From Promethearchaeota archaeon (GTDB lineage: Archaea; Asgardarchaeota; Lokiarchaeia; Sigyniarchaeales; SOKP01), in contig JBHLNT010000001.1 in the NCBI GenBank assembly GCA_048941265.1, forward strand, positions 21,974 through 85,973: a DNA stretch of 64,000 bases, read 5' to 3'. The notes beneath the pieces were generated by a model that was given only the letters and a program-made list of their open reading frames with translations, did no database searches and was not told where the DNA came from. Positions 34,071-55,314 of the stretch are shown here, piece by piece (position 1 is the first letter of the stretch; the number at the start of each line of letters is the position of its first letter). The translations under genes and the position numbers were made by a program.

Positions 34071-34089
34071 GAAGCGAGAGGTTTAACTG

Positions 34090-35169
34090 GTGGAAGCGAC
34101 GGAAAAATCGTCAGGTACAAAAATCAAGGTTGGTATACCTAGAGCACTTCATTTTTATAGGTACTTTCCTTTTTGGAAAAAACTTCTTGAAGAATTAGAT
34201 GTGGAAATTATATTAACACCTAACACTAACAAGAAGATTGTAGAGGAAGGTGTAACTCATGGGTTTGGTGAGTTATGTATACCTGTAAAAATTTATTATG
34301 GACATGTAATGAAATTAATACGGGAACATCCCGATTTAGATTTCTTATTTGTACCTCGATATGTTTCAGAAGTAAAAGAAGCATACTTTTGTCCTAAATT
34401 TCTGTCGTTACCAGATGTCATAAAAATTTTGCCGAACGCTCCAAAACTTTTGACTTTTGAAGTTAATATAAAAGAATTTCCAATTGCCACAGCAGCCGCT
34501 GAACTTGCTAAACAATTAGGAAAAAGCCAATCTAAAGGATTAGATGCATATAAGAAAGCGCAAGAATATTTTGATGAGTATCATAAATTTTTAAGGGAAG
34601 GTGCCCCTGTCAATCATGCACTACGATTAGTAGAATATAACCGTCCTTTCACTTTGCCAAAAAAGAAACGTAAGGGCGATATTAAGTTCTTGTTATTAGG
34701 ACATGCATATAATATTTTTGACACATTTATTAATCTAGATTTTCAAAAAAAATTACAAGATCAAAATGTTGAGGTTTTAACTATTGAAAATCTGCCAGAA
34801 TCAATATTCAAGGTACCAGTTATCGTGAATAGGCGTTTGAGAAACTATTGGAGACATGAGGAGGAAATCATGCAATCAATTAGGTACTTTATGACGAAAG
34901 GACGAAAAGAAATCGATGGAGTGGTTTTTCTTATTAGTTTTGCTTGTGGACCCGACAGTCTCATTTCCGAGTTAATAATGAGAGATATGAAAGTCGTAGG
35001 GCTTCCATTTTTAGAGATAATAATGGATGAACATTCTGGTGAGGCGGGTTTGCTTACAAGAGTTGAAAGTTTCGTAGAGATGGTAAGAAGGAAGAAGCAA
35101 AAACTCTCAGAATTAGAAAACAAGCAAAAACTTGGAGTTTTAGAAGAGATTGATACTTCATTTGCCTAG
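34090..35169 (+). CDS. BCR/HAD-family 'CoA enzyme activase' accessory domain protein (DUF2229-like, part 1)
   Basis: KVGIPRALHFYRYFPFWKKLLEELDVEIILTPNTNKKIVEEG...LCIPVKIYYGH...FVPRYVS...YFCPKF...SFACGPDS matches, from memory, the uncharacterised domain found C-terminal to BcrAD/BadFG ATPase domains in large putative CoA-substrate-specific enzyme activases. GTG start with GAGAGG 8 nt upstream. Confidence 0.6.
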   Translation: MEATEKSSGTKIKVGIPRALHFYRYFPFWKKLLEELDVEIILTPNTNKKIVEEGVTHGFGELCIPVKIYYGHVMKLIREHPDLDFLFVPRYVSEVKEAYFCPKFLSLPDVIKILPNAPKLLTFEVNIKEFPIATAAAELAKQLGKSQSKGLDAYKKAQEYFDEYHKFLREGAPVNHALRLVEYNRPFTLPKKKRKGDIKFLLLGHAYNIFDTFINLDFQKKLQDQNVEVLTIENLPESIFKVPVIVNRRLRNYWRHEEEIMQSIRYFMTKGRKEIDGVVFLISFACGPDSLISELIMRDMKVVGLPFLEIIMDEHSGEAGLLTRVESFVEMVRRKKQKLSELENKQKLGVLEEIDTSFA

Positions 35170-35182
35170 GAGGTATTAAAAA

Positions 35183-36367
35183 ATGTTAATTTCCTTTCCA
35201 AATATGGGCCCAAACTGGGTAGCATTCAAATCTTTATTCGAGTCTTTGGATTTAGATGTCATCGTACCTGACCCCACAAACCGAGAAGCGATTAAAGTAG
35301 GTGTTAAATATAGCCCAGAATTCGTATGTTTCCCATTTAAGGCCACCCTCGGAGATTTTAAAAATGCATTGGATAAAGGTGCTGATACTCTCGTGATGGC
35401 AATTGATTGCGGACCATGTCGCTTTGGCTTCTATGCTTCTGTTCAAGAGAGACTTTTGAGGGATATGGGTTATGATGATTTTACATTAATTCCCTTAGAT
35501 CAAGCAGACTTACTCAATTTTAAATGGGTAAAAGCTCTTGAAGAAATTTCAGGAATGCAAGGTTTAGTTAAATATCCTAAATTTGTAAAGGCTGTCATCA
35601 TATTTTTAAAAAAAGCTAAATTGTTAGATGATATTCAGACTGCAGAAGGTCTTTTCAGGGCTTATGAACGGAATCAAGGAGATACTACTCGTACTGTAAA
35701 AAATTTATTAAATTATCTTGATCAAACCAATTCCATTTCTGAATTACGTAAATTTCGAAAGGTAATTTTAGATTTATTTAGTCGGATTGATATTGATAAA
35801 AATATTAGTCCTTTGAGAGTAGGGCTTTCAGGTGAGATTCATATAAGTTTAGAACCATATGTTAATCTAGATATTCGGAGAAAATTGGGTGAAATGGCGG
35901 TTGAGATCCATCAATCTCTAAGTCTATATGATTGGGTAGTCCATAAATTTCACTTAAATTATCACAGAAAATGGCTTGAACATCTTGCCCGACCGCATGT
36001 ACCGATGGATATAGGCGGAGAATGTGTCTGGGTATTAGGAGAATATATAGATAAAGGCAAGGCATCCTTCGATGGCTTCGTTCATGAATATCCGTTTACG
36101 TGCATGCCGGAAGTTGTAGCCCGGACGATTATTACTAATAAGCTTAAGAAAATATATGATTTACCGGTATTATTTTTCTCCTTCGATGAACAGAGTGGTC
36201 TTGAGGGATTTCGTACCCGTCTTGAAGCGTTTTGCGACCTCATGCATTCCCGACGTGATCAAGAAATAAAAAATAATCCCGAATTTTCGGCAATAGGAAA
36301 GAAGATTTATCCACATTTTGGAAATCATTTTTATGATGAATGTTATCAAATAATTAAAGCTTCATAG
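35183..36367 (+). CDS. BCR/HAD-family 2-hydroxyacyl-CoA-dehydratase-like / DUF2229-like protein (part 2)
   Basis: SFPNMGPNWVAFKSLFESLDLDVIVPDPTNREAIKVGVKYSPEFVCFPFK...GADTLVMAIDCGPCRFGFY shows the same family pattern as part 1. A strong SD (AGGAGGT) lies 8 nt upstream. Confidence 0.6.
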   Translation: MLISFPNMGPNWVAFKSLFESLDLDVIVPDPTNREAIKVGVKYSPEFVCFPFKATLGDFKNALDKGADTLVMAIDCGPCRFGFYASVQERLLRDMGYDDFTLIPLDQADLLNFKWVKALEEISGMQGLVKYPKFVKAVIIFLKKAKLLDDIQTAEGLFRAYERNQGDTTRTVKNLLNYLDQTNSISELRKFRKVILDLFSRIDIDKNISPLRVGLSGEIHISLEPYVNLDIRRKLGEMAVEIHQSLSLYDWVVHKFHLNYHRKWLEHLARPHVPMDIGGECVWVLGEYIDKGKASFDGFVHEYPFTCMPEVVARTIITNKLKKIYDLPVLFFSFDEQSGLEGFRTRLEAFCDLMHSRRDQEIKNNPEFSAIGKKIYPHFGNHFYDECYQIIKAS

Positions 36368-36381
36368 AGGATATATGGAAG

Positions 36382-37404
36382 ATGGTACAAGTTTCAGATA
36401 AAATTATTAAAGACGATGGTAAAAAAGACGCATTTTTAGGTATAGATGTAGGGTCAGTATCCCTTAAATTCGTGTTAATGGATAGAGATGGTAATGTGCT
36501 TACTTCAGTTTTTCTCAGAAATCGTGGTTCTCCTATTGATTCCGTTAAAGATGGAATGTCAAAATTGAGGGAGCAAATAGAAGCAGATGATAATTTACAA
36601 GGATATGCAATTCGTGCATGTGGAACTACTGGATCTGCGAGATATTTAACTAAAGCGGTTGTAGGAGGCGACATTGCAAAAACAGAGATCATTGCCCACG
36701 CAGTAGGGGCTCAATCAGAATATCCGGATGTACGCACAATTTTAGAGATTGGAGGGCAAGATTCTAAAATAATTATTCTTCGTGATGGAATCATAGTGGA
36801 TTTTGCTATGAATTCTGTTTGTGCCGCAGGTACCGGCTCATTCCTTGACCACCAAGCGTCGAGATTAGATCTACCCATCGAAGAATTTGGTGATTGGGCG
36901 GTAAAATCGAAAAATCCTTTATCAATCGCGGGCAGGTGTACTGTTTTTGCCGAATCAGATATGATTCATAAGCAAAACGCAGGGTATTCTCGAGAAGATA
37001 TTATTGCGGGATTATGTGATTCATTAGTACGAAATTATCTAAATAATTTAGCTAAAGGAAAAGAATTAGAAGAACCCGTTGTCTTTCAAGGGGGAGTATC
37101 CTTTAATAAGGGTATTGTTCAAGCCTTTGAAAGACATTTAAACTGCAAAGTTGTAGTCCCAAAATATAATGTACTGATGGGAGCTCTTGGAATGGCAATT
37201 CTTGTTAGAGACCATTTCTTGCGTAATGAGACTGAAACTGCTTTTAGAGGGCTTGAAGTAGCAGAAATTAAATTTGTAACCTCTGCTTTTAATTGTGGGG
37301 ATTGTCCCAATAATTGTGAAATTATCCAGGTAAAAATGCCCGAATTGGGCAATGAAGTAATAGCCCGCTGGGGCAGCAGATGTGGAAAATGGGAGGTGTT
37401 TTAA
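36382..37404 (+). CDS. BcrAD/BadFG/HgdC-type ATPase (radical-enzyme 'archerase' activator) with extra C-terminal Cys cluster
   Basis: LGIDVGSVSLKFVLMD, CGTTGSAR and EIGGQDSKIIIL. The two [4Fe-4S]-ligand contexts are NSVCAAGTGSFLD and GRCTVFAESDMI, followed by VFQGGVSFNKG. The C-terminus has CGDCPNNCE...RCGKW. Confidence 0.85.
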   Translation: MVQVSDKIIKDDGKKDAFLGIDVGSVSLKFVLMDRDGNVLTSVFLRNRGSPIDSVKDGMSKLREQIEADDNLQGYAIRACGTTGSARYLTKAVVGGDIAKTEIIAHAVGAQSEYPDVRTILEIGGQDSKIIILRDGIIVDFAMNSVCAAGTGSFLDHQASRLDLPIEEFGDWAVKSKNPLSIAGRCTVFAESDMIHKQNAGYSREDIIAGLCDSLVRNYLNNLAKGKELEEPVVFQGGVSFNKGIVQAFERHLNCKVVVPKYNVLMGALGMAILVRDHFLRNETETAFRGLEVAEIKFVTSAFNCGDCPNNCEIIQVKMPELGNEVIARWGSRCGKWEVF

Positions 37405-43386: not shown

Positions 43387-46107
43387 CTATTGATACTTTT
43401 TCTTAAGATATTTATCAATAGCTTTCGCTGTTCTTTTTCCAGCACCCATGGCAGATATCACAGTAGCACTCCCAGTTACTATATCTCCACCAGCAAATAC
43501 ACCCTCTAGGTTGGACTGACCATTCTCATCAATTTCAATATAACCCCTTTTATTTAATTTTAGATCAGGGATTGTTTTGATGAGAGTTGGATTGGCTCTA
43601 GTTCCAATAGCAATGATAATTGTGTCTGTTTCTATTAGATACTCTGAGCCCTGAATTGATATGGGACGCCTTCTCCCAGATTCATCAGATTCTCCTAACT
43701 CCATCTTAATTACTTCCATAAACCTTACATTAGCATTCTCATCCCCTAAGAACCGTACTGGATTTGTTAAAAATTTGAACTCAATCCCTTCCTCTTTAGT
43801 ATGATGATATTCCTCTTTTCTTGCTGGCATTTCTACTTCGGATCTTCTATAGACGATAACGACTTTCTCCGCACCTAACCTGAGCGCTGTTCTTGCGGAA
43901 TCTAAAGCTACGTTACCTCCTCCTATAACAGTTACTATTTTGCCAATTTTAATTGGTGTATCATAATCAGGAAATCTATAAGCTTTCATTAAATTTGATC
44001 TTGTAAGAAATTCATTTGCCGTTAAAACACCGTTTAAATTTAATCCCTCAACATCCATAAGTATCGGTAATCCTGCACCAACTCCTATAAAAAATGCTTT
44101 AAATCCCATTTCTTTTAAATCCTCAAGATCTAAGGTCTTACCAATAAGAGTATTATATTGAATTTTGACATTTAGCATTTTTAATGTTTCAATTTCATCA
44201 TTTACAATTTCTTTTGGCAATCTAAATTCAGGGATGCCATAGGTGAGCACACCACCTCCAGTATGGAATGCTTCAAAAATGGTAACATCATATCCTTCCA
44301 TCGCTAATGTTCCGGCACATGTTATACCAGCAGGGCCTGAACCAATTACAGCAACTTTAATATCATTAGGGAGTTTACAATCAGGACATTCTTTAAGTCT
44401 ATTAGTTCTTTCCCAATCAGCAATAAATCTCTCCAAATAACCTATAGCTATAGGCTCTCCCAAAGTATTTAATATACAAGTTTGTTCACATTGTATCTCC
44501 TGTGGACATACTCTTCCACAAATCGCAGGTAATAAATTGCGTGATTTAATTTCTCGAAGTGCTTCAAAATATTTCTCTTCTTTTAAAAGATTTATAAATT
44601 TAGGAATTCTAATCTTTACAGGACACCCTTCTACACAAAGAGGTTTACCACATTGTAAACACCTATAGGTTTCTAATTTAACCATCTCTGTAGTTAAACC
44701 CTTAGAAACTTCTTCAAAGTTTGTAATTCTTATATCTGATTCTTGCTCAATCATGTAAGGCCTATGAAGCTTTCTATATTTATTAATTTTCGACTCCGCT
44801 ATTCCACTAAGATTAATAAAATTTTTATTATCCTCCTGCATTTCGCGTGCAATAATCATATTCAGATCTAATGCTTTTTGAAAAAATTCTGCACCCTTTT
44901 CAGTTCGAATTATCACAGTAGACCATCCATTCCCAGATCCAGCAGAGCCAACTGAAATATCGGCTTGTTCAGCTGTAAAATCATCACAATAGAAACAACC
45001 AAATCGACCATATTTTTTAATTCTTTCTATTGGTATATCATAAACTTTGTTATTTTTATTATAGATAATAAATCTCTCTTTAGTGATGTCCATCTTCTTG
45101 ATATCCCCCGGTCTACGTAGAAACTCGTTCTTTAAAAGTTCCACAATTTTCACATAGTCAAACGATTCCATGCAAAAAACTCCGATCTTAATTACAATAT
45201 TGTCATAAAATGATTTATTTAATGGATAGAAAGACATTTTTTTTAGTGCCTCCATTATACAAGGAGTGCCCACCACAGCAATATTCTGGTAATCCTTTAA
45301 ATCATGTAAAATCTTTAAAGTAGGAGAATTTGTATATTTAGTACCCGCAGTTTTTAAAAGATCTTGTTCATTTTCGATAAATACTGGCATAGGTTTTAAT
45401 GGTTCTACTGCAGTTCCAATAGCTAAAGCTCCATTAATCAACTTTTGTTGAAACGCCATTTTTAATAATGATGTGACTACTCCCCCATCTTGAGCAACTC
45501 TTTTTATTTGAGTATTAGTTGTTTGAGCTATGTAGATATTATGATAGTAATTAAATTGTTCCAAATACTTTAAAACTGTAGAGCTGCTTTTTTGAGATCT
45601 TTTTAAAGTCATAGGAAAGAAAGCTCGTGGACAACAAGTATAACATAATCCACAATCAATGCAAGCATCGTAATCAATTTCAAAAGTACTCTCATCATAA
45701 GCTATAGCTTCTATAGGACAGATTGATACACATAATCCACAGCCACAACAAAGATACGTTTCTCTAATTAAGGAAGCATTAGGAAAAATTCTCTTTTTTT
45801 CAAATTCATCAATTTTTTCTTGGAAGAATCTCGGATTTTTACCAACATTTTCTAATAATCCTAATTCTTTTAAATACTCTAAATTATAGATTAAAAATTG
45901 TCTGGATAGATTTAATTCATTTTTAAGATTTTGAATGTCTATAATACCATGTTCCTTGATTTTTTCTAGAATTCTATATCTCTCTTGCTCAGCATCAATT
46001 ACAGATTTAATGAAATTTTCATATTCAATTTCATTATATTTTCCTGCTTTTAGGATTTTATTTTTATTATTTAAAAGTATTTGGATTAAAGGAGTCTGTT
46101 CTTCCAT
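43387..46107 (-). CDS. multidomain oxidoreductase: wHTH-like N-terminus + 2x[4Fe-4S] ferredoxin + FrhB/FdhB-like (F420/flavin-binding) domain + NfnB/GltD-like NAD(P)H-flavin oxidoreductase (copy 2)
   Basis: Ferredoxin region is CCGCGLCVSICP...CIDCGLCYTCCP. FrhB-like region is VAQDGGVVTSLL, VVGTPCIMEALKK and CDDFTAEQADISVGS. GltD/NfnB-like region is RCLQCGKPLCVEGCP...ICGRVCPQEIQCEQTC, VAVIGSGPAGITCA, VIGGGNVALDSARTALRLGA and VFAGGD. Confidence 0.8.
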   Translation of the reverse strand: MEEQTPLIQILLNNKNKILKAGKYNEIEYENFIKSVIDAEQERYRILEKIKEHGIIDIQNLKNELNLSRQFLIYNLEYLKELGLLENVGKNPRFFQEKIDEFEKKRIFPNASLIRETYLCCGCGLCVSICPIEAIAYDESTFEIDYDACIDCGLCYTCCPRAFFPMTLKRSQKSSSTVLKYLEQFNYYHNIYIAQTTNTQIKRVAQDGGVVTSLLKMAFQQKLINGALAIGTAVEPLKPMPVFIENEQDLLKTAGTKYTNSPTLKILHDLKDYQNIAVVGTPCIMEALKKMSFYPLNKSFYDNIVIKIGVFCMESFDYVKIVELLKNEFLRRPGDIKKMDITKERFIIYNKNNKVYDIPIERIKKYGRFGCFYCDDFTAEQADISVGSAGSGNGWSTVIIRTEKGAEFFQKALDLNMIIAREMQEDNKNFINLSGIAESKINKYRKLHRPYMIEQESDIRITNFEEVSKGLTTEMVKLETYRCLQCGKPLCVEGCPVKIRIPKFINLLKEEKYFEALREIKSRNLLPAICGRVCPQEIQCEQTCILNTLGEPIAIGYLERFIADWERTNRLKECPDCKLPNDIKVAVIGSGPAGITCAGTLAMEGYDVTIFEAFHTGGGVLTYGIPEFRLPKEIVNDEIETLKMLNVKIQYNTLIGKTLDLEDLKEMGFKAFFIGVGAGLPILMDVEGLNLNGVLTANEFLTRSNLMKAYRFPDYDTPIKIGKIVTVIGGGNVALDSARTALRLGAEKVVIVYRRSEVEMPARKEEYHHTKEEGIEFKFLTNPVRFLGDENANVRFMEVIKMELGESDESGRRRPISIQGSEYLIETDTIIIAIGTRANPTLIKTIPDLKLNKRGYIEIDENGQSNLEGVFAGGDIVTGSATVISAMGAGKRTAKAIDKYLKKKYQ

Positions 46108-46155
46108 TTTTAGATACCTTAACTTTAATCTAAGATACCTTACTTTTGTACTTTT

Positions 46156-48897
46156 CTAATGTTTTTTGAAATATTTACTCTTTAGATATTTATCAATAGA
46201 TTTCGCAGCCCTTTTTCCAGCTCCCATAGCGGAAATTACAGTAGCACTTCCAGTTACTATGTCTCCCCCCGCAAATACTCCTTCTAAATTAGTTTGACCA
46301 TTCTCATCAATTTCTATGTAACCCCACTTATTTAATTTTAATTCTGGAATCGATTTAGTTAGAATGGGATTGGCTCTGGTTCCAATAGCAACAATGATCG
46401 TGTCGGTTTCTATTAAAAATTCTGAACCTTGAATTGGTACGGGGCGCCTTCTTCCAGATTCATCAGGTTCTCCTAATTCCATTTTAATTACTTCCATAAA
46501 CCTTACATTAGCATTCTCATCACCTAAAAATCTTACTGGATCTGTTAAAAAATTGAATTCAATCCCCTCTTCTTTAGCATGATGATATTCTTCTTTTCTT
46601 GCTGGCATTTCTACTTCTGACCTTCTATAAACGATAATTACTCTATCTGCACCAAGCCTGAGGGCGGTTCTTGCTGAATCCAAAGCTACATTGCCTCCTC
46701 CTATAACAGTAACAGTTTTTCCAATTTTGATGGGAGTATCATAATCAGGAAATTTGTATGCTTTCATCAGATTTGCCCGTGTAAGAAATTCATTTGCCGT
46801 TAATACCCCGTTTAAATTTAATCCATTCACCTTTATAAACATCGGTAATCCTGCACCAACTCCTAAAAAAAATGCTTTAAATCCCATTTCTTTTAAATCC
46901 TCAAGTTCTAAAGTCTTTCCTATTATAGCATTATAGTGAATTTTCACATTTAGCATCTTTAATGTTTCAATTTCATCTTTTACAATTTCTTTTGGTAATC
47001 TAAATTCAGGTATTCCATAGGTGAGTACCCCTCCTCCAGCATGGAATGCTTCAAAAATAGTAACATCATAGCCTTCCATCGCAAGTGATCCAGCGCATGT
47101 TAAACCTGCTGGACCTGAACCAATTATTGCTACCTTTATACCATTGGGAGGTTTACAATCTGGACATTCTTTAAGTTTATTATTTCTTTCCCAGTCAGCA
47201 ATAAATCGTTCTAAATAACCTATAGCAACAGGTTCACCCAAATCGTTTAATAAACATTGTTTTTCACATTGAATTTCTTGAGGGCAAACTCTTCCACAAA
47301 TCGCAGGTAATAGATTTCGTGATTTAATTTCGTGAATAGCTTCTATAAATTTCTCTTCTCTTAAGAGTTTTATAAAGTTAGGGATTCTGATATTTACAGG
47401 ACAGCCAATAATACATTGAGGATTCCCACATTGCAAGCATCTCTGAGTTTCTAATCTTATCATCTCTAAAGTTAAACCTTTAGGAACTTCTTCAAAATTA
47501 GTGGTTCTAATACTTGGCTCTTGTTCAATCATTTTTGGTCTGTGTAGCGTCTTATACATCTTTAACTTAGACTTTGCTATCCTACTTAGAGATTTAAAAC
47601 TTTTACTTTCTTCATCTATTTTCTTATTTATTATCATGTGGGATTCGATTGCTTTTTGAAAAAACTCGGCCCCTTTTTTTGTACGAATAATTACTGTTGA
47701 CCAACCTGGTTCGGAACCAATAGAACCAACCGAAATATCGGCTTGTTCTGATGTTAAATCATCACAGAAGAAACATCCAAATCTAGCATATTTCTTGATT
47801 CTTTTTATGGGAATATCAAACATAGAATCATTATTTTGATATATGATTAATTTTCCCTGATTGATATCCATTTTTCTAATATCTTTTGGAGATTGGTGGA
47901 ACTCATTCTTTAACATTTTAATGATATTCTCATAATCAAATGATTCCATACAAAATAAACCTATTTTAAGAACAATGTTATCATAAAATGGCTTATTATT
48001 GGGATAAAATGTGAGTTTCTTTAGGGCTTCCATTATACATGGAGTTCCTACAACTGCCAATCTTTTAATATTCCTGTATCCGTGAAGGATTTGCAGCATT
48101 GGAGAATTTGTATATTTAGTTCCTGCTGTTTTTAAGAGATCTTCCTCATTTTCAATTAATAAAGACCGTGGTTCCAGTGGTTGATCTCCTAATCCTACAG
48201 CTAGAGCTCCATCTATTAAATTTTGTTGAAAGGCCATTTTAAGCAGTGTAGTAACTATTCCACCATCTTGAGCAACTTTCTTTATACGAGAATCAGTGGT
48301 TTGGGTGGTATAAATTTCTTGAAAGTAATTTATTTGTTCTAAATATTTAATGTTAGGAATATTTTCTTGGGATCTTTTCATTTCCATAGGAAAAAAGGTA
48401 CGTGGACAACACGCATAGCATAGTCCACAATCAATACATATTTTATCATCAATTTCAAAAGTTCCTTTACCGTAACTAATTGCATCAACAGGGCAGACTG
48501 AAACGCATAAACCACAGCCACAACAGAGCTTTTTCTCTCTAATTATTAAAGCGTTAGGGAAGATTTGATTTTTTTTGAATATATCAATTGTCTCTTGAAA
48601 AAATCTTGGTGTTTCGCCAATAAAATTTAAACATCCACATGCCTTTAGATATTCAATGTTGTATAATAGCGTTTTTTCAGATAAATTTAACTCTTTTCTC
48701 AATCTTTCAATATCTAATGTTCCTAATTCTTCAATTTTTTTTAAAATTAAAGTTCTCTCTCTTTCGGCTTGAGATAATGAATTAACTAAGTCGTTGTATT
48801 CCGTTTCATTATATTTTCCAGCATGTAGTATTTTTTCTTTATTATTAATTAACAAATTAATTAAAGCAACTTCTCTTTCCATTTTAAGATGCCTCAC
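46156..48897 (-). CDS. multidomain oxidoreductase: wHTH-ferredoxin-FrhB-NfnB/GltD fusion (copy 1)
   Basis: Same architecture and motifs as 43387-46107. By alignment with the paralog (MEEQTPLIQILL vs MEREVALINLL), the second Met (48882) is the more likely start, leaving 1 nt between it and the upstream stop codon. Confidence 0.8.
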   Translation of the reverse strand: MRHLKMEREVALINLLINNKEKILHAGKYNETEYNDLVNSLSQAERERTLILKKIEELGTLDIERLRKELNLSEKTLLYNIEYLKACGCLNFIGETPRFFQETIDIFKKNQIFPNALIIREKKLCCGCGLCVSVCPVDAISYGKGTFEIDDKICIDCGLCYACCPRTFFPMEMKRSQENIPNIKYLEQINYFQEIYTTQTTDSRIKKVAQDGGIVTTLLKMAFQQNLIDGALAVGLGDQPLEPRSLLIENEEDLLKTAGTKYTNSPMLQILHGYRNIKRLAVVGTPCIMEALKKLTFYPNNKPFYDNIVLKIGLFCMESFDYENIIKMLKNEFHQSPKDIRKMDINQGKLIIYQNNDSMFDIPIKRIKKYARFGCFFCDDLTSEQADISVGSIGSEPGWSTVIIRTKKGAEFFQKAIESHMIINKKIDEESKSFKSLSRIAKSKLKMYKTLHRPKMIEQEPSIRTTNFEEVPKGLTLEMIRLETQRCLQCGNPQCIIGCPVNIRIPNFIKLLREEKFIEAIHEIKSRNLLPAICGRVCPQEIQCEKQCLLNDLGEPVAIGYLERFIADWERNNKLKECPDCKPPNGIKVAIIGSGPAGLTCAGSLAMEGYDVTIFEAFHAGGGVLTYGIPEFRLPKEIVKDEIETLKMLNVKIHYNAIIGKTLELEDLKEMGFKAFFLGVGAGLPMFIKVNGLNLNGVLTANEFLTRANLMKAYKFPDYDTPIKIGKTVTVIGGGNVALDSARTALRLGADRVIIVYRRSEVEMPARKEEYHHAKEEGIEFNFLTDPVRFLGDENANVRFMEVIKMELGEPDESGRRRPVPIQGSEFLIETDTIIVAIGTRANPILTKSIPELKLNKWGYIEIDENGQTNLEGVFAGGDIVTGSATVISAMGAGKRAAKSIDKYLKSKYFKKH

Positions 48898-49768
48898 TTT
48901 CGTATTTTTCTAAGGCTCTGCATTCTCGATCATAGCACTCCGCTGACATTTTCTCTTGATCAAGAAATCTATTTGCGCGTTTTAAAAGATTATCAAAATC
49001 AACTATATGTCCATCAACATCTGGACCATCAACACAGGCAAAATAAATATCACCATCGAGTGTTGAAAATCGACATCCACCACACATTCCAGTTCCATCA
49101 ATCATTATTGTATTCAAAGAAACATATGTTTTTACTTTAGGAAAATTTCCAGATCCATTAGTTGTAAGAGTAACATACTTCATCATAATTAAAGGTCCAA
49201 TTGCGATAACAAGACTAATCTTCTCTCGCATAATTAGTTCCTTAAGTGGTTCAGTGACAACTCCTTTTATCCCCTCACTTCCATCGTCAGTACAGATGAT
49301 CAATTCATCACTTACTGAACGCATTTTTTCTCTCCAAAACAATAAATCCTTGTTTCTTGCACCTATTATTGTTATAATTTTATTTCCTGCTTCTTTTAAT
49401 TCCTTTGCTTGAGGATAACAAGGCGCAATTCCAATACCACCGCCTATAATGACAACCGGATATTCATATTTTTCAATATGAATTTTATTTCCAAGAGGTC
49501 CCACAATATCAAGAATCTCATCTCCCACGTTTTGATGAGAAAGTAATTTTGTACTTTTTCCAACAACTTGGACTACTATGGTTATGGTTCCCTTTTCTCG
49601 ATCATAATCTGCTATAGTTAAAGGAAACCGTTCACCCGTCTCATTAATTCTTATTAGAATAAAATTTCCTCCATGAGCTTTTCTTGATATGAGTGGCGTA
49701 TCTAATACCATTTCATATACTTGACCACTATTCCCAAGTTCTCGTTTTTCTAAAATTTTAAAAGGCAA
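48884..49768 (-). CDS. NfnA/SudB/PyrK-like FAD + [2Fe-2S] electron-transfer subunit
   Basis: ERFPLTIADYD (RxxS/T flavin motif region), IGGGIGIAPCYP (NAD(P) fold) and the C-terminal GTGMCGGCR...ACVDGP cluster motif; 294 aa. Confidence 0.8.
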   Translation of the reverse strand: MPFKILEKRELGNSGQVYEMVLDTPLISRKAHGGNFILIRINETGERFPLTIADYDREKGTITIVVQVVGKSTKLLSHQNVGDEILDIVGPLGNKIHIEKYEYPVVIIGGGIGIAPCYPQAKELKEAGNKIITIIGARNKDLLFWREKMRSVSDELIICTDDGSEGIKGVVTEPLKELIMREKISLVIAIGPLIMMKYVTLTTNGSGNFPKVKTYVSLNTIMIDGTGMCGGCRFSTLDGDIYFACVDGPDVDGHIVDFDNLLKRANRFLDQEKMSAECYDRECRALEKYESEAS

Positions 49769-49923
49769 TACTTTTTCCCCTTTTAGTTTAAAATACTTCC
49801 AAATTCTAAGAATTCTAAAATTATTTTGATTTTTTTAAATTTTTGATTATGATTTAGAAGAAAAATTCAAAAAGAAAAAACTTTTTCTGTAGTTGATATT
49901 TGAAATTTTATCTTTTTCTAAAG

Positions 49924-52680
49924 TTATAATAGCCATAACATCTTTCCTATAAATGTTGTCAAATCAATGACTTTAAGTTTATTTTTTAACTCGATATGTT
50001 CATTTAAATAACAATTAAAATGAGCTAGGCATTTTGGACAACTAACGATTAAGTATTCTGCACCTGTATCTATTGCTTCATTTATTCTCTGAGCCTGTAG
50101 AACCTTAGAATACTCATTACAGGTAATATAAGCAGCAACACCACAACAGGAAGCATCCTTTTTATTATTTTCCATTTCTTTAAATTCAATAAATGGAAGC
50201 TTCTCTAATATTTCCCGTGGAGCATCATAGATATTGCTCATTCGACCTAGTCTGCACGCATCGTGATAAGTTATTTTGATCTTCTCTCTTGGAGGAAATT
50301 TTAAGCCATCCAATAGATTTTCCTTCAGAATGTATTCAGTAATATGATAGATTTCAAAATCAAATTGAGAACTCCCCTTAAATAGTTTTTTATACTCATA
50401 CTTCCAAGTATAATATCCTTCTGCACAGCTAAATATTATTGTCTTAACGCCAGCATCTTTAAACAATTGGACGTTATATTTCGCCAATTTTTCAAAGGTA
50501 TTTATATCTCCAACCCAAAGACTATCATGTCCACAGCATTTTTCTTCTGGTAAAACAACCGGGATAATATCTTTTTGATTTAGAAGTCCTATTACTGCTT
50601 TAGGTATTTCTAAATAATCTAAAAGATTTCGATAATGAATATTTGGATGTTCGCCATAATGACAATGTTGGATATTTGATTCATCACAAGCATTAGAATA
50701 AGCAGTAAGATCTTGATCAGTGCTGCAACAAATATTACAACTTAAGCACCTACTTGCTTCTTGGATTGCTTGATCTTGGCTTAGCGCGATCTCTACTTCA
50801 TCAAAAATCTTTATTCTCTCTTCAATTGGTAGCATGTCCATATCTTGTCTAAAAGCCGCTTGAGCGTATTTTTTGGGCATGGGGGATATTTTGGAATCAC
50901 CCTTTCTGACCCTATTTTTCCGTAAATCGATGCCCTTCAAAAAACGATCAATTGAAACAGCAGCTTCATAACCATTTCCTATGGCTTTAATCGCTATACC
51001 CTTCCCTCCAATTATATCTCCACCCGCAAAAACTCCAGGAACATTGGTTTCTAAAGTTATATCATCAGCTTGAATATTACCCCATCTATTGATCTCTAAT
51101 TTATCTTGAAAAGCCCTTCTTACAGAAGATAATTCTGCTATTTGACCTAAAGCAAGAATCAATATATCTAAGTTCATTTTAAATTCTGAGCCCTCAATTG
51201 GAACCGGGCTTCTTCTTCCTGATTCATCAGGTTCTCCTAGCTCCATTTGAATACATTCAACTTCAATTAGATTCCCCTCTTTATCCCCGTATAGTTTCAC
51301 AGGATTAGTTAGAAAGTGAAATTCTACACCTTCTTCTTTTGCGGTTTCAATTTCTTCCCTTAAGGCAGGCATTTCTCTTTCGGAGCGTCTATAAATATCA
51401 ATAACTTTTTTAGCTCCCAATCTTAGAGCTGTTCTTGCCGAATCTATTGCTGCATTTCCACCTCCTACTACACCAACGCTTTTTTCTCTGAAATCAAACT
51501 CTTTTTTTAAGATATTTCTATCTTTTAGAAAATCTAAGCTGCCCATAACATTATTAAGATCCTCACCCTCAATTTTCATTTTTCGATAATCTTGTAACCC
51601 GACTGACAGAAAAAAAGCTTTATATCCCTGATTCTTTAAATCATCATATGTTAAATTGGAACCTACTGGAGAATTTGTTTTGATTTCAACACCCATTTTT
51701 TCGATAAATTCTATCTCGTAATCTAATATATCATATGGTAATCGATATTTAGGGATACCGGCTCTGAGCATGCCCCCCTTATAGGATGATTCTTCGAATA
51801 CAGTAGGTTTATAACCCATTCTAGCTAAATAATATGCAGCTGTCAACCCTGCAGGTCCTGAACCGATTATCGCAACTTTTTCTTTAGTTTGTTTGACAGG
51901 TTCAATTTCTGATTGGTTTGGATTCTTTAATTCCCAATCTGAAATAAAGCGTTTTAATGCCCGGATAGCGACAGGATCATCAATTTCTTTTCGATTACAA
52001 TAATCTTCACAGGGCTGGGTACAAATTCGTCCACAAACTAACGGGAAAGGATTTTTTTCCCTAATTAAATCAAGAGCTTCTTGAAATTTTCCTTCACCGA
52101 TTAAAGAGACATAACCTTGAACATCAACTCCTGCTGGACATGCATTTGAGCAGGGTGCAACCGAATTCATAAAAGGGAGACATCCCATAAAATATGCTAT
52201 TTCTCCCTTATCAGTAATTTTTAAATGAGTATCATCCAAAAACCCAATTTTATTATATATCTCAATTTCGTCATTAGCCATTAAATAAGGCAAATTTGAA
52301 TATAATCTGCCATGATGACACTCCAGTTGTTGATTTTGGAGGGGCTCATACTCAGTAGCTAATGAACGTAATTCTAAAATTATCTCTGGGATATTAACCC
52401 CTACGTTATCCTTAGTCATTGGGCAATACTCCATGCACTCCCCACAAGTTAAACAATACCAAATATTGTGCTTCTCTAATACCTCTTCTGGAGGTAGAAA
52501 TGTTAAATCATTGATTAAATCCCTTGGATGAAATATTCCTAAATAAGACAAGGGACATACATTCACGCATCTGTTACAATTAAAGCAATAATTTGCTGCA
52601 GCTCTCACCTTTTCAATAAATTCCTTTGAAATAATTTTTTTTTCCTTATTATGAGTACTTTTATCACTTGATTCGGTCAT
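49924..52680 (-). CDS. HdrC-like 2x[4Fe-4S] + GltD/NfnB-like flavoprotein + HdrB/HdrD-type CCG-domain fusion oxidoreductase
   Basis: The N-terminus has CFNCNRCVNVCP...CLTCGECMEYCP. The middle has CSNACPAGVDV...VCGRICTQPCEDYC, VAIIGSGPAGLTAA, VVGGGNAAIDSARTALRLGA and VFAGGD. The C-terminus has CLSCNICC plus two CCG motifs (EEKCCGHDS, DASCCGVAAY). Confidence 0.8.
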   Translation of the reverse strand: MTESSDKSTHNKEKKIISKEFIEKVRAAANYCFNCNRCVNVCPLSYLGIFHPRDLINDLTFLPPEEVLEKHNIWYCLTCGECMEYCPMTKDNVGVNIPEIILELRSLATEYEPLQNQQLECHHGRLYSNLPYLMANDEIEIYNKIGFLDDTHLKITDKGEIAYFMGCLPFMNSVAPCSNACPAGVDVQGYVSLIGEGKFQEALDLIREKNPFPLVCGRICTQPCEDYCNRKEIDDPVAIRALKRFISDWELKNPNQSEIEPVKQTKEKVAIIGSGPAGLTAAYYLARMGYKPTVFEESSYKGGMLRAGIPKYRLPYDILDYEIEFIEKMGVEIKTNSPVGSNLTYDDLKNQGYKAFFLSVGLQDYRKMKIEGEDLNNVMGSLDFLKDRNILKKEFDFREKSVGVVGGGNAAIDSARTALRLGAKKVIDIYRRSEREMPALREEIETAKEEGVEFHFLTNPVKLYGDKEGNLIEVECIQMELGEPDESGRRSPVPIEGSEFKMNLDILILALGQIAELSSVRRAFQDKLEINRWGNIQADDITLETNVPGVFAGGDIIGGKGIAIKAIGNGYEAAVSIDRFLKGIDLRKNRVRKGDSKISPMPKKYAQAAFRQDMDMLPIEERIKIFDEVEIALSQDQAIQEASRCLSCNICCSTDQDLTAYSNACDESNIQHCHYGEHPNIHYRNLLDYLEIPKAVIGLLNQKDIIPVVLPEEKCCGHDSLWVGDINTFEKLAKYNVQLFKDAGVKTIIFSCAEGYYTWKYEYKKLFKGSSQFDFEIYHITEYILKENLLDGLKFPPREKIKITYHDACRLGRMSNIYDAPREILEKLPFIEFKEMENNKKDASCCGVAAYITCNEYSKVLQAQRINEAIDTGAEYLIVSCPKCLAHFNCYLNEHIELKNKLKVIDLTTFIGKMLWLL

Positions 52681-52786: not shown

Positions 52787-53536
52787 TTGGACAAAACTAT
52801 AAAAGTAAAAATAGGGATTCATTTGATATCGCAAGTCTTGGATCTCGCAAGATTTCTTTTAAATTTTATAGTTTTTGCTTTTTATGGAATCGTTTTTATT
52901 TTTTTGGCATATAGAGTTATAAAAAGAAATAGAACGAGAATTAGCTTTATAATCACAGGCTTTTACTTATCTTGTGGAACAGGTGTCATAGTAGACCTTG
53001 TTTATATCATCATTACGCCTCTTATAGAGGATTTAATACTTTTATTTTTATATTTCATTACAGTCTTCCTTTTAAGCATGTCCTTATGTTTCTTAAACTT
53101 ATTTGTTATGATGTTATATAAATCAGAAAGGATTTTTACTACACAAATTCAATTACTCTATTTATTTTTTTTTAGTATATTAATCTTAACACTTTTTCTC
53201 ATCCCTAATGCTGTTGCTATAAACGAAAGTACAGGTTGGAGACCAAAATGGAGTCTAGTATTTACGGTTCTCTTTTTGATGATTTGCACTTTTGGAGCGA
53301 TTATTCCTACTTATTATTATTCCATCAAATTATATCAAAAAATTGAAAACAAAGATTTAAGAAAAAGATGGCTCTGTTTCATTATTGGAATTTCAGGTTA
53401 TTTCTTTTTATGTTATGGTACTTCCTATTTTTGTTATTTCGGGCACGTCAATTTAATAATTTGGGCCATTATAGCTATGCCCTCCTTAATCAATTTATAT
53501 CTTATCTATTACGGTATTGGACGTCAAATGGAGTAA
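52787..53536 (+). CDS. hypothetical 7-TM membrane protein (tandem paralog 1 of 3)
   Basis: Seven hydrophobic segments. Shared landmarks with the next two genes are the (I/V)NEST.W.PKWS loop, KRW-F-IIG and the C-terminal YYG(I/V)G(R/K). Confidence 0.6.
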   Translation: MDKTIKVKIGIHLISQVLDLARFLLNFIVFAFYGIVFIFLAYRVIKRNRTRISFIITGFYLSCGTGVIVDLVYIIITPLIEDLILLFLYFITVFLLSMSLCFLNLFVMMLYKSERIFTTQIQLLYLFFFSILILTLFLIPNAVAINESTGWRPKWSLVFTVLFLMICTFGAIIPTYYYSIKLYQKIENKDLRKRWLCFIIGISGYFFLCYGTSYFCYFGHVNLIIWAIIAMPSLINLYLIYYGIGRQME

Positions 53537-53694
53537 GAATTAAACGTGTTATTTTGCAAATATTTTATTACTAAAAATAATCTATCTTTTTAAAGTAAAA
53601 GAAATTAGACATAAAAAAAATAAAAATTTTTATTACAAAAACAGTTTATTTATTATATAATTAGGGATGGGGTAAGTAATAAATATTTAGACAA

Positions 53695-54384
53695 ATGGAC
53701 GTCGCTCGATTCATTCAAATTTATATTGTTCAAGGATTAATTGGTTTGTTTTATCTTTATATGTCATATGTAATTCTAAGACGGGATAAAAAAAATCTTC
53801 ATCTTGCACTATGTGGTTTTTATGTATGTGTAGGCTTAGGAGTTATAATAAATATAATTTATGCCTCCTTTTTTGATGAAGCTCTTGTATATCTTCTTCA
53901 TTTTTTAACGTATTTTTTGCTTTGTTTTTGTCAAGTTTTCTTACTAATTTTTGTATTAATTTTAACTAAATCTAAGAATATAATTAATCTAAAAGTCCAA
54001 TTAGTTTTAATTATTACTTTTGGGATACTTCTATGTGGACTATGGTTTATCCCGAATGGAATTACGATTAATGAAACCACAAATTGGAAACCTGTTTGGA
54101 GCAGGGAATTTTTAATTTATTCTTATGCTGTTTGTACCTTGTTTACATTTGGACCTTTGATATATTATTCAACAAAGATCTATCTCAAATTAGAGAGTTT
54201 ATATTTAAAGAGAAAGTGGCTATTTTTCATAATAGGATTATTGTCTTACTACTTTCTTTATTATGGTACTTCTCTGTCAAATTCTTTAAATGATTCTGGA
54301 TTTAGATTGATATGGTCTATTATATCCCTCTTTGTAATACCATCAACATACCTTATTTATTACGGAGTCGGAAGGGAGTTATAA
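53695..54384 (+). CDS. hypothetical 7-TM membrane protein (tandem paralog 2 of 3)
   Basis: ARFIQIYIVQG, PNGITINETTNWKPVWS, LKRKWLFFIIG and LIYYGVGRE. Confidence 0.6.
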   Translation: MDVARFIQIYIVQGLIGLFYLYMSYVILRRDKKNLHLALCGFYVCVGLGVIINIIYASFFDEALVYLLHFLTYFLLCFCQVFLLIFVLILTKSKNIINLKVQLVLIITFGILLCGLWFIPNGITINETTNWKPVWSREFLIYSYAVCTLFTFGPLIYYSTKIYLKLESLYLKRKWLFFIIGLLSYYFLYYGTSLSNSLNDSGFRLIWSIISLFVIPSTYLIYYGVGREL

Positions 54385-54597
54385 TTAGTAAACTTAACTA
54401 TTATATGCATATTCATAAAGACACAGTTAAGCAGATATAATATAGACCATTAAAATAATTTTTGGTAAAAATTCTTCATATGGAATTAAGTTAAATAGAA
54501 AACTTAAATTTTTAATGGATTAGTGAGATCTTAATACTAATAATATTTTATTTAAAAATTAGAATAAATTAAGTAAAACCAGAGGGAGATCGAATTT

Positions 54598-55314
54598 ATG
54601 GTATTTTATCAATTAGATCTTGCTAGAATTATTCAAGTATACATTGTTCAAGGTTCTGTGGCAATTTTTTTTGTAATTCTCGCATATAAAATACTTAAGC
54701 GTGATACTAAAAGGTTAAATTTAATGTTTAGCTGTTTTTATTTAAGTATAACCATAGGCCTTATCGTGAATATTATTTATGTTCCTTTGACTATTGAGGC
54801 TATTGTATTAGTTCTTTACTATATTACAATCTTCTTCATTTTATTAGGACCCATATTTCTTCTTGTGGTTGAATTAATGCTGTTAAAGTCCGAAAAAGTT
54901 ATTAATACCACTAAGCAATTAACAATTATCTTAATTTATGCGATTGCATTATCTTGTATGATATTCATCCCAAATGGAGTCACTATTAATTCTAGCACAG
55001 AATGGAAACCAGTTTGGAGTATTCCTTATTTTATCTATACAATCACAGTACTCACAGTTGGAGCAATAGTACCATCTTTATATTTTTCTTACCAAATATA
55101 TAAGCAATTTGAAGATGAAAAGTTAAAGAAAAAGTGGGGATATTTCATTATTGGTCTTTATGGACTTATTTTTCTCATGTATGGTACATTGACTTCGAAT
55201 ACATTAAATGACCAAACATTTAGGACAGTATGGGCGATAATATCACTATTTTTAATCACTGTCCCCCCATATCTCGTATATTATGGAGTTGGCAAAGAGC
55301 TGGAAGCAGATTAA
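54598..55314 (+). CDS. hypothetical 7-TM membrane protein (tandem paralog 3 of 3)
   Basis: ARIIQVYIVQG, PNGVTINSSTEWKPVWS, LKKKWGYFIIG and LVYYGVGKE. Confidence 0.6.
   Translation: MVFYQLDLARIIQVYIVQGSVAIFFVILAYKILKRDTKRLNLMFSCFYLSITIGLIVNIIYVPLTIEAIVLVLYYITIFFILLGPIFLLVVELMLLKSEKVINTTKQLTIILIYAIALSCMIFIPNGVTINSSTEWKPVWSIPYFIYTITVLTVGAIVPSLYFSYQIYKQFEDEKLKKKWGYFIIGLYGLIFLMYGTLTSNTLNDQTFRTVWAIISLFLITVPPYLVYYGVGKELEAD

Follow-up and report, generated by a model that had tools for sequence, protein, structure and literature searches.

Introduction

Do the four redox genes at positions 43387-52680 of a 64-kb stretch of DNA from a Promethearchaeota (Lokiarchaeal) metagenome-assembled genome (MAG; GCA_048941265.1, contig JBHLNT010000001.1; the whole stretch of 64,000 nucleotides is referred to as the window) encode one enzyme complex, and which electron carriers would it connect? 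The original prediction had read them as a possible flavin-based electron-bifurcating assembly coupling NAD(P)H, ferredoxin and a third carrier, an F420-like deazaflavin or a disulfide. Here we report the domain content of the four proteins, the conservation of their cofactor ligands, the conserved pairing of two of the genes and the distribution of the families among Asgard archaea. On this basis we suggest that the locus comprises two units: Unit A, an NfnA-type small subunit with two copies of a large subunit in which a ferredoxin (Fd) domain and an FrhB-type module are fused to NfnB, would be an F420-linked Nfn-type bifurcating or confurcating transhydrogenase, and Unit B, a 918-aa protein, would be a separate enzyme. 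We give this two-unit reading an even chance of being correct.

The locus and its four genes

Open reading frames (ORFs) were called in region 43387-52680 of the window, the G+C content of which is ~30%. The region holds four intact, consecutive ORFs, all on the minus strand, as originally proposed, and hidden Markov models of Pfam and NCBIfam confirmed, with E-values far beyond chance, the domains that had been read from all four proteins. The genes are:

49924..52680, minus strand: 918-aa HdrC-like / GltD-like / HdrB-like (two CCG domains) fusion, Unit B (Pfam, NCBIfam)
48884..49768, minus strand: 294-aa NfnA/NfnS-type small subunit with a TTG start, Unit A (PRK06222, solved NfnA relatives)
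46156..48882 (ATG, 908 aa) or 46156..48897 (GTG, 913 aa), minus strand: large subunit copy 1 with helix-turn-helix (HTH)-like, Fd, FrhB and NfnB domains, Unit A
43387..46107, minus strand: 906-aa second copy of the large subunit, with the domains of copy 1, Unit A (Pfam, NCBIfam, alignment)

For copy 1, homologs use the ATG at 48882, which leaves a 1-nt gap to the stop of nfnA; a start at the GTG at 48897 gives the 913-aa form and a 14-nt overlap with nfnA. NCBI proteins identical to the window products were found for the 918-aa protein (MFX1441827.1, 918 aa, 100%) and for the small subunit (MFX1441826.1, 294 aa); both belong to a 'Promethearchaeota archaeon' MAG and lie on a 114-kb contig. 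An exact-sequence look-up of both fusion proteins gave no matches in the protein collection, and the NCBI annotation of these two genes may differ from the ORFs used here.

Unit A contains a complete NfnAB core

The 294-aa protein scores 361 bits against PRK06222, the NCBIfam model for NfnA/SudB-type proteins (cutoff 220), and aligns with the solved small subunits NfnI-S of Pyrococcus furiosus (5jca_S, E 2e-85) and NfnA of Thermotoga maritima (4ylf_A, E 3e-77). Its [2Fe-2S] Asp-Cys3 motif, DGTGMCGGC...C, aligns with that of the solved enzymes (DGTGMCGxC...C), and the protein has both the flavin adenine dinucleotide (FAD)/NAD-binding fold and the [2Fe-2S] site of an NfnAB (NfnSL) small subunit. 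The C-terminal half of both fusions is of the NfnB type, and in copy 1 it occupies:

46174..47526, minus strand: NfnB module with two [4Fe-4S] clusters, a bifurcating-type FAD and a YRR NADPH motif (TIGR01316, 4ylf_B, 5jca_L)

Against TIGR01316, the NfnB-type 'gltA' model (cutoff 471.75), copy 1 scores 587 bits and copy 2 569 bits. The 'gltA' label of this model belongs to proteins that today are known as NfnB/SudA. For the NfnB half, E is 1e-170 with T. maritima NfnB (4ylf_B), where all Cys and Glu ligand positions align, and 1e-156 with P. furiosus NfnI-L (5jca_L), whereas true GltD chains are matched at E 1e-82 to 1e-83 only. Moreover, the fusions do not reach the GltD equivalog level (TIGR01317, 254-255 bits against 447.7; TIGR01318, 357-380 bits against 483), and no gltB-like ORF is present in the window; the genes are not plain glutamate synthase small subunits next to gltB, the arrangement that would have spoken against the original prediction. 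The motifs CxxCx4Cx3CP, Cx3CPx4CExxC and YRR of the NfnB module are invariant in 16 homologs, and all features of an NfnAB large subunit, i.e. two [4Fe-4S] clusters (one Glu-ligated), FAD and an NADPH site, were found. With ~60% (NfnB) and ~50% (NfnA) identity to characterised enzymes, the NfnAB core of Unit A is, judged by its sequence, complete and close to these enzymes.

The large subunits carry an FrhB-type module fused to NfnB

The N-terminal half of the large subunits sets them apart from canonical NfnB. In copy 1 it consists of:

48553..48882, minus strand: N-terminal all-helical HTH-like domain, ~110 aa (AlphaFold, Foldseek)
48388..48546, minus strand: Fd domain, 2x[4Fe-4S], with C125, C128, C131, C135 and C154, C157, C160, C164 (913-aa numbering) as ligands (Pfam; aligns with the N-terminal Fd domain of 8riu_B)
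47548..48330, minus strand: FrhB-type module with the [4Fe-4S] ligands C287, C316, C375 and C378 and the motifs QDGG, GTKY, DISVGSIGS and GWSTV

In both long proteins Pfam identified a Fer4 dicluster (residues ~115-165) followed by FrhB_FdhB_N (E 2e-19 to 3e-20) and FrhB_FdhB_C (E 1e-42 to 6e-44), which together span residues ~190-430. Residues 122-442 align end to end with two solved chains, 8riu_B (E 4e-51) and 8rja_E (E ~1e-51). These are flavin-dependent F420 reductases with a two-cluster N-terminal Fd domain and an FrhB-like [4Fe-4S]/FAD domain, and they connect CODH and Fwd, which elsewhere are ferredoxin-coupled, to F420 in Ca. Ethanoperedens (Lemaire et al., PMC11493965). The FrhB module also matches the Frh beta subunit (6qgr_B, E 6e-54; 3zfs_C was matched as well) and Fsr (7np8_A, E 2e-46), while FdhB (E 1e-16 to 1e-21) and the ferredoxin-dependent HCAR (5dqr, E 5e-9) are much more distant. 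The top Foldseek match of an AlphaFold model of the 447-aa N-terminal half (pLDDT 67.7) was 8riu_B.

At the level of motifs, QDGG(I/V)xT, GT(K/R)Y and GCxxCxD...AD(I/V)SxGSxGS..GW(S/N)TV are common to the fusion and to 6qgr_B, 3zfs_C, 8riu_B and 8rja_E. The cluster ligands C287, C316, C375 and C378 and these common motifs are invariant in 16 family members; the FrhB-like domain, in which a loss of flavin-binding residues would have counted against the original prediction, retains its [4Fe-4S] cysteines and family signature as far as motifs tell. NCBIfam scores are below the cutoffs for FrhB (PRK09325, 245-258 bits against 269; TIGR03289, 213-222 bits against 331.5) and for FpoF (NF040616, 150-159 bits against 475), which argues for a distinct FrhB subfamily and not FrhB proper. 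Finally, the FrhB alignment stops at residue 446 and the NfnB alignment opens at ~455, which places the F420-type module right next to the NfnB domain with the Fe-S chain.

The conserved ~110-aa N-terminal helical domain, which is present in both long proteins, had been overlooked originally. Its AlphaFold model is confident (pLDDT 82), and in Foldseek 44-47 of its residues superpose on HTH domains of the Lrp/AsnC type with a root-mean-square deviation of ~1 A, a match that is not significant (E >= 0.86); the N-terminus of copy 2 gave a Pfam match to SelB-wing_3 (E 1e-5). A claim of DNA binding was dropped since the HTH resemblance is local only and the fold match not significant. The domain, which is also found in standalone FrhB paralogs of Hdr clusters (see below), could contribute redox-dependent docking or DNA binding.

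One family in Asgard archaea and a lineage-specific tandem duplication

An exhaustive phmmer search of 1.84 billion representatives returned one full-length representative of the fusion, P0065 (66% identity over residues 4-907), and the remaining top-150 matches covered the NfnB half only or were N-terminal fragments; the HTH-Fd-FrhB-NfnB architecture thus represents a single tight family. All named relatives of the long fusions come from Lokiarchaeota, Promethearchaeota or Hermodarchaeota, and they include KKK42183.1 of the original Lokiarchaeum GC14_75, which is annotated as 'sulfide dehydrogenase subunit alpha precursor'. Judged by the named sequences, the fusion is confined to Asgard archaea.

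The two large subunits, the 'mega-fusions' of the original prediction, are 74% identical overall, with all ligands intact in both. Divergence is highest in the HTH-like (N-terminal, 56% identity) and FrhB (65%) domains and lowest in the FAD/NADPH domain (87%), and the Fd (70%) and Fer4_20 (77%) domains lie in between. Only one fusion gene is found in each of the syntenic relatives, L085 and L086 (the latter a contig of 1.8 Mb), and copy 1 is its ortholog (89% identity to L086 and 80% to L085), and for copy 2 nothing closer than copy 1 was found elsewhere. Since the relatives have one copy, the second is, from these comparisons, a lineage-specific tandem duplication; it is neither an assembly artefact nor a distinct subunit. 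Between the two copies lies:

46108..46155, minus strand: 48-nt spacer with the direct repeat TAAGGTATCT present twice and no T-run

The direct repeat could be a duplicated ribosome-binding site or a junction remnant of the tandem duplication.

The closest standalone relatives of the N-terminal half are ~500 aa long, have the same HTH-Fd-FrhB layout and show 38-45% identity. Their genes cluster with a second FrhB paralog and with HdrD-like, double-length HdrA and MvhD genes, which suggests that FrhB modules on bifurcating flavoproteins are a recurring design. In one such conserved metagenomic cluster (L118:7999-21141; also in L106-L127, e.g. L108, L113 and L115) a 443-aa polyferredoxin, the ~500-aa HTH-Fd-FrhB protein and a ~370-aa second FrhB paralog are followed by an HdrD-like Fer4+CCG protein, a ~1015-aa double HdrA, MvhD with an HTH_40 tail, a second double HdrA and MvhD, and the whole looks like an F420-linked Hdr-type bifurcating system. 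Locus L105 was considered as a natural split between FrhB and NfnB and was rejected as a frameshifted or deleted copy. At least one family member, P0254 (MFX1573744.1, in the 90% cluster of P0034), had been called in NCBI as its 463-aa NfnB part alone and named 'NADPH-dependent glutamate synthase', so the FrhB half may be hidden by automatic annotation in some MAGs.

Gene neighbourhoods define nfnA plus fusion as the conserved unit

Neighbourhoods were studied by ORF and BLAST analysis in five assemblies and in 80 metagenome loci that were fetched with the N-terminal half as query. A scan of reference genomes by full-length alignment chose patterns in the NfnB half and returned canonical bacterial nfnAB loci only, and these were used as a layout control; in ~75 of them nfnA is immediately ahead of nfnB, the same layout as in the window. 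Presence of the 918-type gene was scored in the 13 informative fusion loci, each with >=4.8 kb (i.e. at least 4.8 kb) of upstream sequence.

In every fusion locus with upstream room (23/23) nfnA directly precedes the fusion gene with a gap of 1-4 nt, as seen in L001 and L083-L086; the gap is 1 nt in the window. The 918-type gene lies upstream of the pair in nine of the 13 informative loci and is missing in four, one of which, L087, retains the remaining synteny. From the invariable pairing and from the loss of the 918-type gene in 4/13 loci, we conclude that nfnA and the fusion gene represent a conserved functional unit. Where the 918-type gene is missing, the pair is usually flanked by glutamate dehydrogenase genes (10 genes in 6 loci), and genes for glutamine synthetase, an AsnC regulator and an amidotransferase are also found nearby. 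The glutamate dehydrogenase neighbours suggest NADPH of amino-acid oxidation as electron donor.

In locus L100 (L100:7027-14642) the stretch downstream of nfnA and the fusion gene codes for two glutamate dehydrogenases, between which lie genes for a NuoE-like protein, a Fer4-containing NuoF-like protein, a [2Fe-2S]/Fer4 protein and a protein of 526 aa in which a Glu_synthase (FMN) domain is weakly matched. These downstream genes may form a Bfu-type complex with a GltB-like subunit.

The 918-aa protein has its own NADPH/FAD module

The 918-aa protein of Unit B combines three parts:

52333..52608, minus strand: HdrC-like 2x[4Fe-4S] domain, residues 25-116, with the Fer4 dicluster at 25-88 (C32, C35, C38, C42; C76, C79, C82, C86) (Pfam Fer4_8/9/10)
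50932..52182, minus strand: GltD/NfnB-like FAD and NAD(P)H module, residues 167-583 (Fer4_20 and Pyr_redox_2), with two N-terminal Fe-S clusters and YRR
49945..50610, minus strand: two CCG (HdrB/HdrD-type) domains, residues ~691-912 (Pfam CCG, 88.8 bits against a cutoff of 20.6)

The HdrC-like domain matches the HdrC chain 8rvu_c (E 1e-9), scores 46.7 bits against TIGR03290, below the cutoff of 160, and has eight cysteines that are invariant in 15 Asgard homologs. The best solved relatives of the GltD-like module are the NADPH-binding modules of Bfu-type NfnABC and Stn (9n5u_A, E 3e-117; 9bov_A; 8oh5_C). The second CCG domain has the full C...CCG...CxxC pattern, the first only CCG and one further Cys (C752), and the region gave C-terminal matches to TfrB, GlpC and LdhH (NCBIfam) and a match to EtfD (9ojn_A, E 2e-15).

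The 918 family is Asgard-wide, with members in Loki, Thor, Odin, Hermod and Hodarchaeales. The 918-type gene also occurs apart from the fusion: in three loci that do not belong to the fusion-bearing set (contigs of Odin, Hodarchaeales and other Asgard archaea) neither nfnA nor the fusion adjoins it, and in two of the three it stands beside an aldehyde:ferredoxin oxidoreductase (AFOR) gene and that of its Fe-S subunit. The gene was also seen near AFOR (AFOR_N/AFOR_C) and a Fer4_11 subunit on Odin-, Heimdall- and Loki-type contigs (L167:497-5925 and L169:6001-12700; L084, L087, L092, L094, L099 and L117), and its association with AFOR seems more widespread than that with nfnA. We take the AFOR pairing to recall systems of a tungsten (W) enzyme, Hdr-like parts and an NAD(P)H module such as Bam.

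In the window the 918-aa gene is separated from nfnA by:

49769..49923, minus strand: 155-nt spacer in which the T-runs GTTTTTTCTTTTTGAATTTTTCTTCT are followed by an AT-rich part and, ahead of the TTG start, by a GGGG that resembles a ribosome-binding site (read directly)

Oligo-T runs terminate archaeal transcription, and such runs are present in this spacer and absent from the 48-nt spacer between the fusions. The 918-aa protein has its own NADPH/FAD module and would need no external electron input. We conclude that it is a frequent yet dispensable neighbour of Unit A in some Lokiarchaeia with its own NADPH/FAD input, and its domains point to Unit B as most likely a self-contained NADPH-dependent HdrD-like reductase of a disulfide or other Hdr-type substrate.

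A bacterial locus of Acetothermia, L066, was considered as a case of a 918-type gene next to nfnAB and was rejected, as Pfam shows HdrA plus GltD (HdrL-like) and no CCG domains. The gene immediately ahead of canonical nfnAB in this locus (L066:6953-12547) encodes an HdrA-like protein of 1088 aa into which a GltD/NfnB-like module is inserted.

Proposed electron path of Unit A

That the proteins of Unit A form a complex, bifurcate electrons and use F420 as substrate is inferred, as is the electron path, which is modelled on NfnAB and the Ethanoperedens complexes. Unit A would be an Asgard-specific variant of NfnAB (NfnSL) made up of nfnA and two paralogs of an extended nfnB, with one NfnA for which both copies would compete. 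NfnA is predicted to hold FAD, an NAD(H) site and a [2Fe-2S] cluster, and NfnB the bifurcating FAD (b-FAD), two [4Fe-4S] clusters and an NADPH site. The N-terminal Fe-S domain of canonical NfnB passes low-potential electrons to free ferredoxin; here this domain is joined, by a linker of <=~10 residues, to the 2x[4Fe-4S] Fd domain and the FrhB-type [4Fe-4S]/FAD module.

NADPH would reduce the b-FAD of NfnB, reversibly. One electron would then pass from b-FAD via the [2Fe-2S] cluster of NfnA and its FAD (a-FAD) to NAD+, and the other from b-FAD via the proximal and distal [4Fe-4S] clusters of NfnB, the two clusters of the Fd domain and the FrhB [4Fe-4S] cluster to the FrhB FAD, which would gather two electrons and then reduce F420. 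The net, reversible reaction would be 2 NADPH + NAD+ + F420 <-> 2 NADP+ + NADH + F420H2. The physiological donor could be NADPH from amino-acid oxidation, tied in this way to the NAD and F420 pools.

Alternative explanations

Several points weigh against F420-linked bifurcation by a Unit A that acts apart from Unit B. F420 (~-340 mV) would need no bifurcated low-potential electron, and bifurcation to F420 would waste energy; docking of free ferredoxin may persist; confidence in the AlphaFold model of the N-terminal half is no more than moderate; and the cutoffs for bona fide FrhB were missed. Some lineages have a ~55-aa deletion inside the FrhB domain: in P0083 (855 aa; L001:10001-12568, L002 and L104; lineage GCA_029856045.1) it lies in the FrhB C-domain with the cluster cysteines kept, and the F420-type module of this lineage may be degenerating. 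F420 biosynthesis genes are absent among the ~35 annotated ORFs of the window, although 64 kb says little here and the rest of the genome was not searched, and the presence of the 918-aa gene next to Unit A in 9/13 informative loci makes a functional link possible. The energetic cost and the missed cutoffs also speak for an enzyme that is still a ferredoxin-dependent Nfn, in which the FrhB-like module is an internal flavin/Fe-S relay or reacts with ferredoxin or another substrate, like HCAR and BciB; the FrhB family does include non-F420 enzymes such as HCAR (5dqr). However, the module matches F420-reactive members (E 1e-46 to 1e-54) far better than it does HCAR (E 5e-9), its layout equals that of the experimentally F420-reducing 8riu_B and 8rja_E, and complete F420 biosynthesis has been reported in Lokiarchaeota, at the level of the phylum (PMC8498797), and we regard this explanation as rather improbable. 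The similar potentials of F420 and NADP, which make bifurcation unnecessary, would also suit a non-bifurcating, Fno-like F420H2:NADP+ oxidoreductase, where the GltD-type FAD splits the hydride into single electrons and NfnA is an accessory NAD(H) port or inactive. GltD-like modules without bifurcation are known from GOGAT, DPD, Bfu-type NfnABC and Stn. That nfnA has lost none of its cofactor ligands and is closely linked to the fusion gene throughout the loci, and that the NfnB half is ~60% identical to bifurcating NfnB and far from GltD (E 1e-170 against 1e-83), makes such an enzyme unlikely.

We likewise doubt a single multi-substrate bifurcating super-complex of all four proteins for NAD(P)H, ferredoxin, F420 and a disulfide, to which the 918-aa protein would give an HdrCB-type site. 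In its favour, the 918-type gene immediately precedes nfnA in the same orientation in the window and eight other Lokiarchaeal loci, and the HdrD-like, HdrA and MvhD neighbours of the standalone FrhB-module relatives show that FrhB-Hdr partnerships exist in related organisms. Against it stand the loss of the 918-type gene in four of 13 informative fusion loci, including the otherwise syntenic L087, its occurrence in Odin, Hodarchaeales and other Asgard contigs without nearby nfnA or fusion, the protein's own NADPH/FAD module and the T-rich 155-nt spacer ahead of nfnA. Least probable, and in our view very improbable, is a role as the electron input of an archaeal glutamate synthase (F420/NADPH-dependent GOGAT or FGltS-like). 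It would explain the database name 'NADPH-dependent glutamate synthase', the loci (type II) that place the pair amid glutamine synthetase, AsnC regulator, glutamine amidotransferase and glutamate dehydrogenase genes, and the 526-548-aa proteins with a Glu_synthase FMN domain 5-7 kb off in L098 and L100; putative F420-dependent versions with FrhB homologs have been proposed in methanogens and anaerobic methanotrophic archaea (ANME) (PMC9012536). Yet the GltD equivalog was missed, a gltB-like gene is absent from the window and from most loci, with weak Glu_synthase-domain proteins a few kb away in 2-3 other loci only, and NfnA has no role in GOGAT. Moreover, the glutamate dehydrogenase neighbours fit NADPH recycling equally well, and the 'gltA' name of TIGR01316 denotes NfnB/SudA as stated above. 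We therefore favour the two-unit reading, in which part of the coupling originally proposed stands: the pair of NfnA and FrhB-NfnB is conserved and a link of NAD(P)H to an F420-type carrier is plausible, while the inclusion of all four proteins in one assembly is not supported by the neighbourhoods, and the single-copy relatives mark the two large subunits as duplicates and not as different components.

Other features of the window

On the plus strand, divergent from the 918-aa gene, three tandem paralogous ORFs (52787-55314; 249, 229 and 238 aa; ~37-47% pairwise identity) encode very hydrophobic polytopic membrane proteins without a Pfam match, and they have the same position in L085 and L086. 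Further away (32376-37404, plus strand), a 564-aa acyltransferase, two DUF2229 'CoA enzyme activase' proteins and a BcrAD/BadFG-type ATPase form a cluster that is kept in L085 and L086 and looks like a 2-hydroxyacyl-CoA-dehydratase-activator-like system. The window also encodes ADH synthase, a Hef/Xpf nuclease and NadB, which are in keeping with an archaeal source. An Rfam search of the window gave no matches, and a scan for sigma-70 promoters and intrinsic terminators gave counts equal to the shuffled expectation, a scan that uses a bacterial consensus and is inapplicable to an archaeon.

Significance

The balancing of redox carriers governs how fermenting, syntrophic Asgard archaea dispose of electrons (H2, formate, acetate) and underlies syntrophy models of eukaryogenesis. 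NfnA with HTH-Fd-FrhB-NfnB might be the first F420-coupled member of NfnSL, balancing NADPH, NADH and F420 in Lokiarchaeia, possibly with ferredoxin as a fourth partner; we rate this somewhat below an even chance. If F420 is indeed hard-wired in this way, amino-acid oxidation (NADPH from glutamate dehydrogenase) would be linked directly to the F420-dependent tetrahydromethanopterin (H4MPT) steps of the Wood-Ljungdahl pathway, the yield of reduced ferredoxin for H2 formation would be altered, and Asgard reconstructions in which these genes are treated as ferredoxin-dependent NfnAB would have to be revised. It would also be a natural experiment for bifurcation, in which the low-potential acceptor of a well-understood flavin has been swapped for a two-electron hydride carrier.

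Comparison with known systems

Sequences of the fusion family have been public since 2015 under generic names. A description of an FrhB-NfnB fusion or of an HdrC-GltD-HdrB protein was not found in the open-access literature, where ANME-1, with its HdrA-NfnB insertions and numerous FrhB paralogs (PMC9012536), and the F420-reducing CODH and Fwd complexes (PMC11493965) come nearest. Asgard reconstructions record 'NfnAB' as present or absent only, as a ferredoxin-linked transhydrogenase (e.g. bioRxiv 10.1101/726976). The design is logical given these precedents, is uncharacterised and bears on the redox economy of Asgard archaea.

Unit A shares with canonical NfnAB the two-gene nfnA-nfnB operon with near-zero spacing and the same cofactor sets. 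It differs in the ~450-aa N-terminal extension of NfnB (HTH-like, 2x[4Fe-4S] Fd and FrhB), which would replace or supplement free ferredoxin on the low-potential branch, and in the duplication of the large subunit in this genome. The same Fd-plus-FrhB-like module, alignable over nearly its full length, is found in the CODH (8RIU chain B) and Fwd (8RJA chain E) subunits of Ca. Ethanoperedens thermophilum; there it docks on CODH or Fwd as a subunit of its own and has demonstrated F420 activity, whereas here it is covalently fused to NfnB behind an HTH-like domain and its F420 activity is predicted. Fsr (an FrhB-type domain with sulfite reductase, 7NP8), FpoF/FqoF, FdhB and the putative F420-dependent glutamate synthases use the FrhB-type F420/FAD/[4Fe-4S] module in a like manner as an electron port, but the partner module here is a bifurcating NfnB.

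Like HdrA9-11 of ANME-1 and HdrL-type proteins (PMC9012536), the 918-aa protein has an NfnB/GltD-like module and Hdr parts in one polypeptide; unlike these it has no HdrA, and its GltD module lies between HdrC-like and HdrB-like parts, i.e. it resembles an HdrD split by GltD. Its GltD-like core is closest to the NADPH-binding module of NfnABC/StnABC (9N5U, 9BOV and 8OH5; E 3e-117 to 9e-100), the NuoE/NuoF-type subunits of which are not present here, where HdrC-like and CCG domains instead flank the module.

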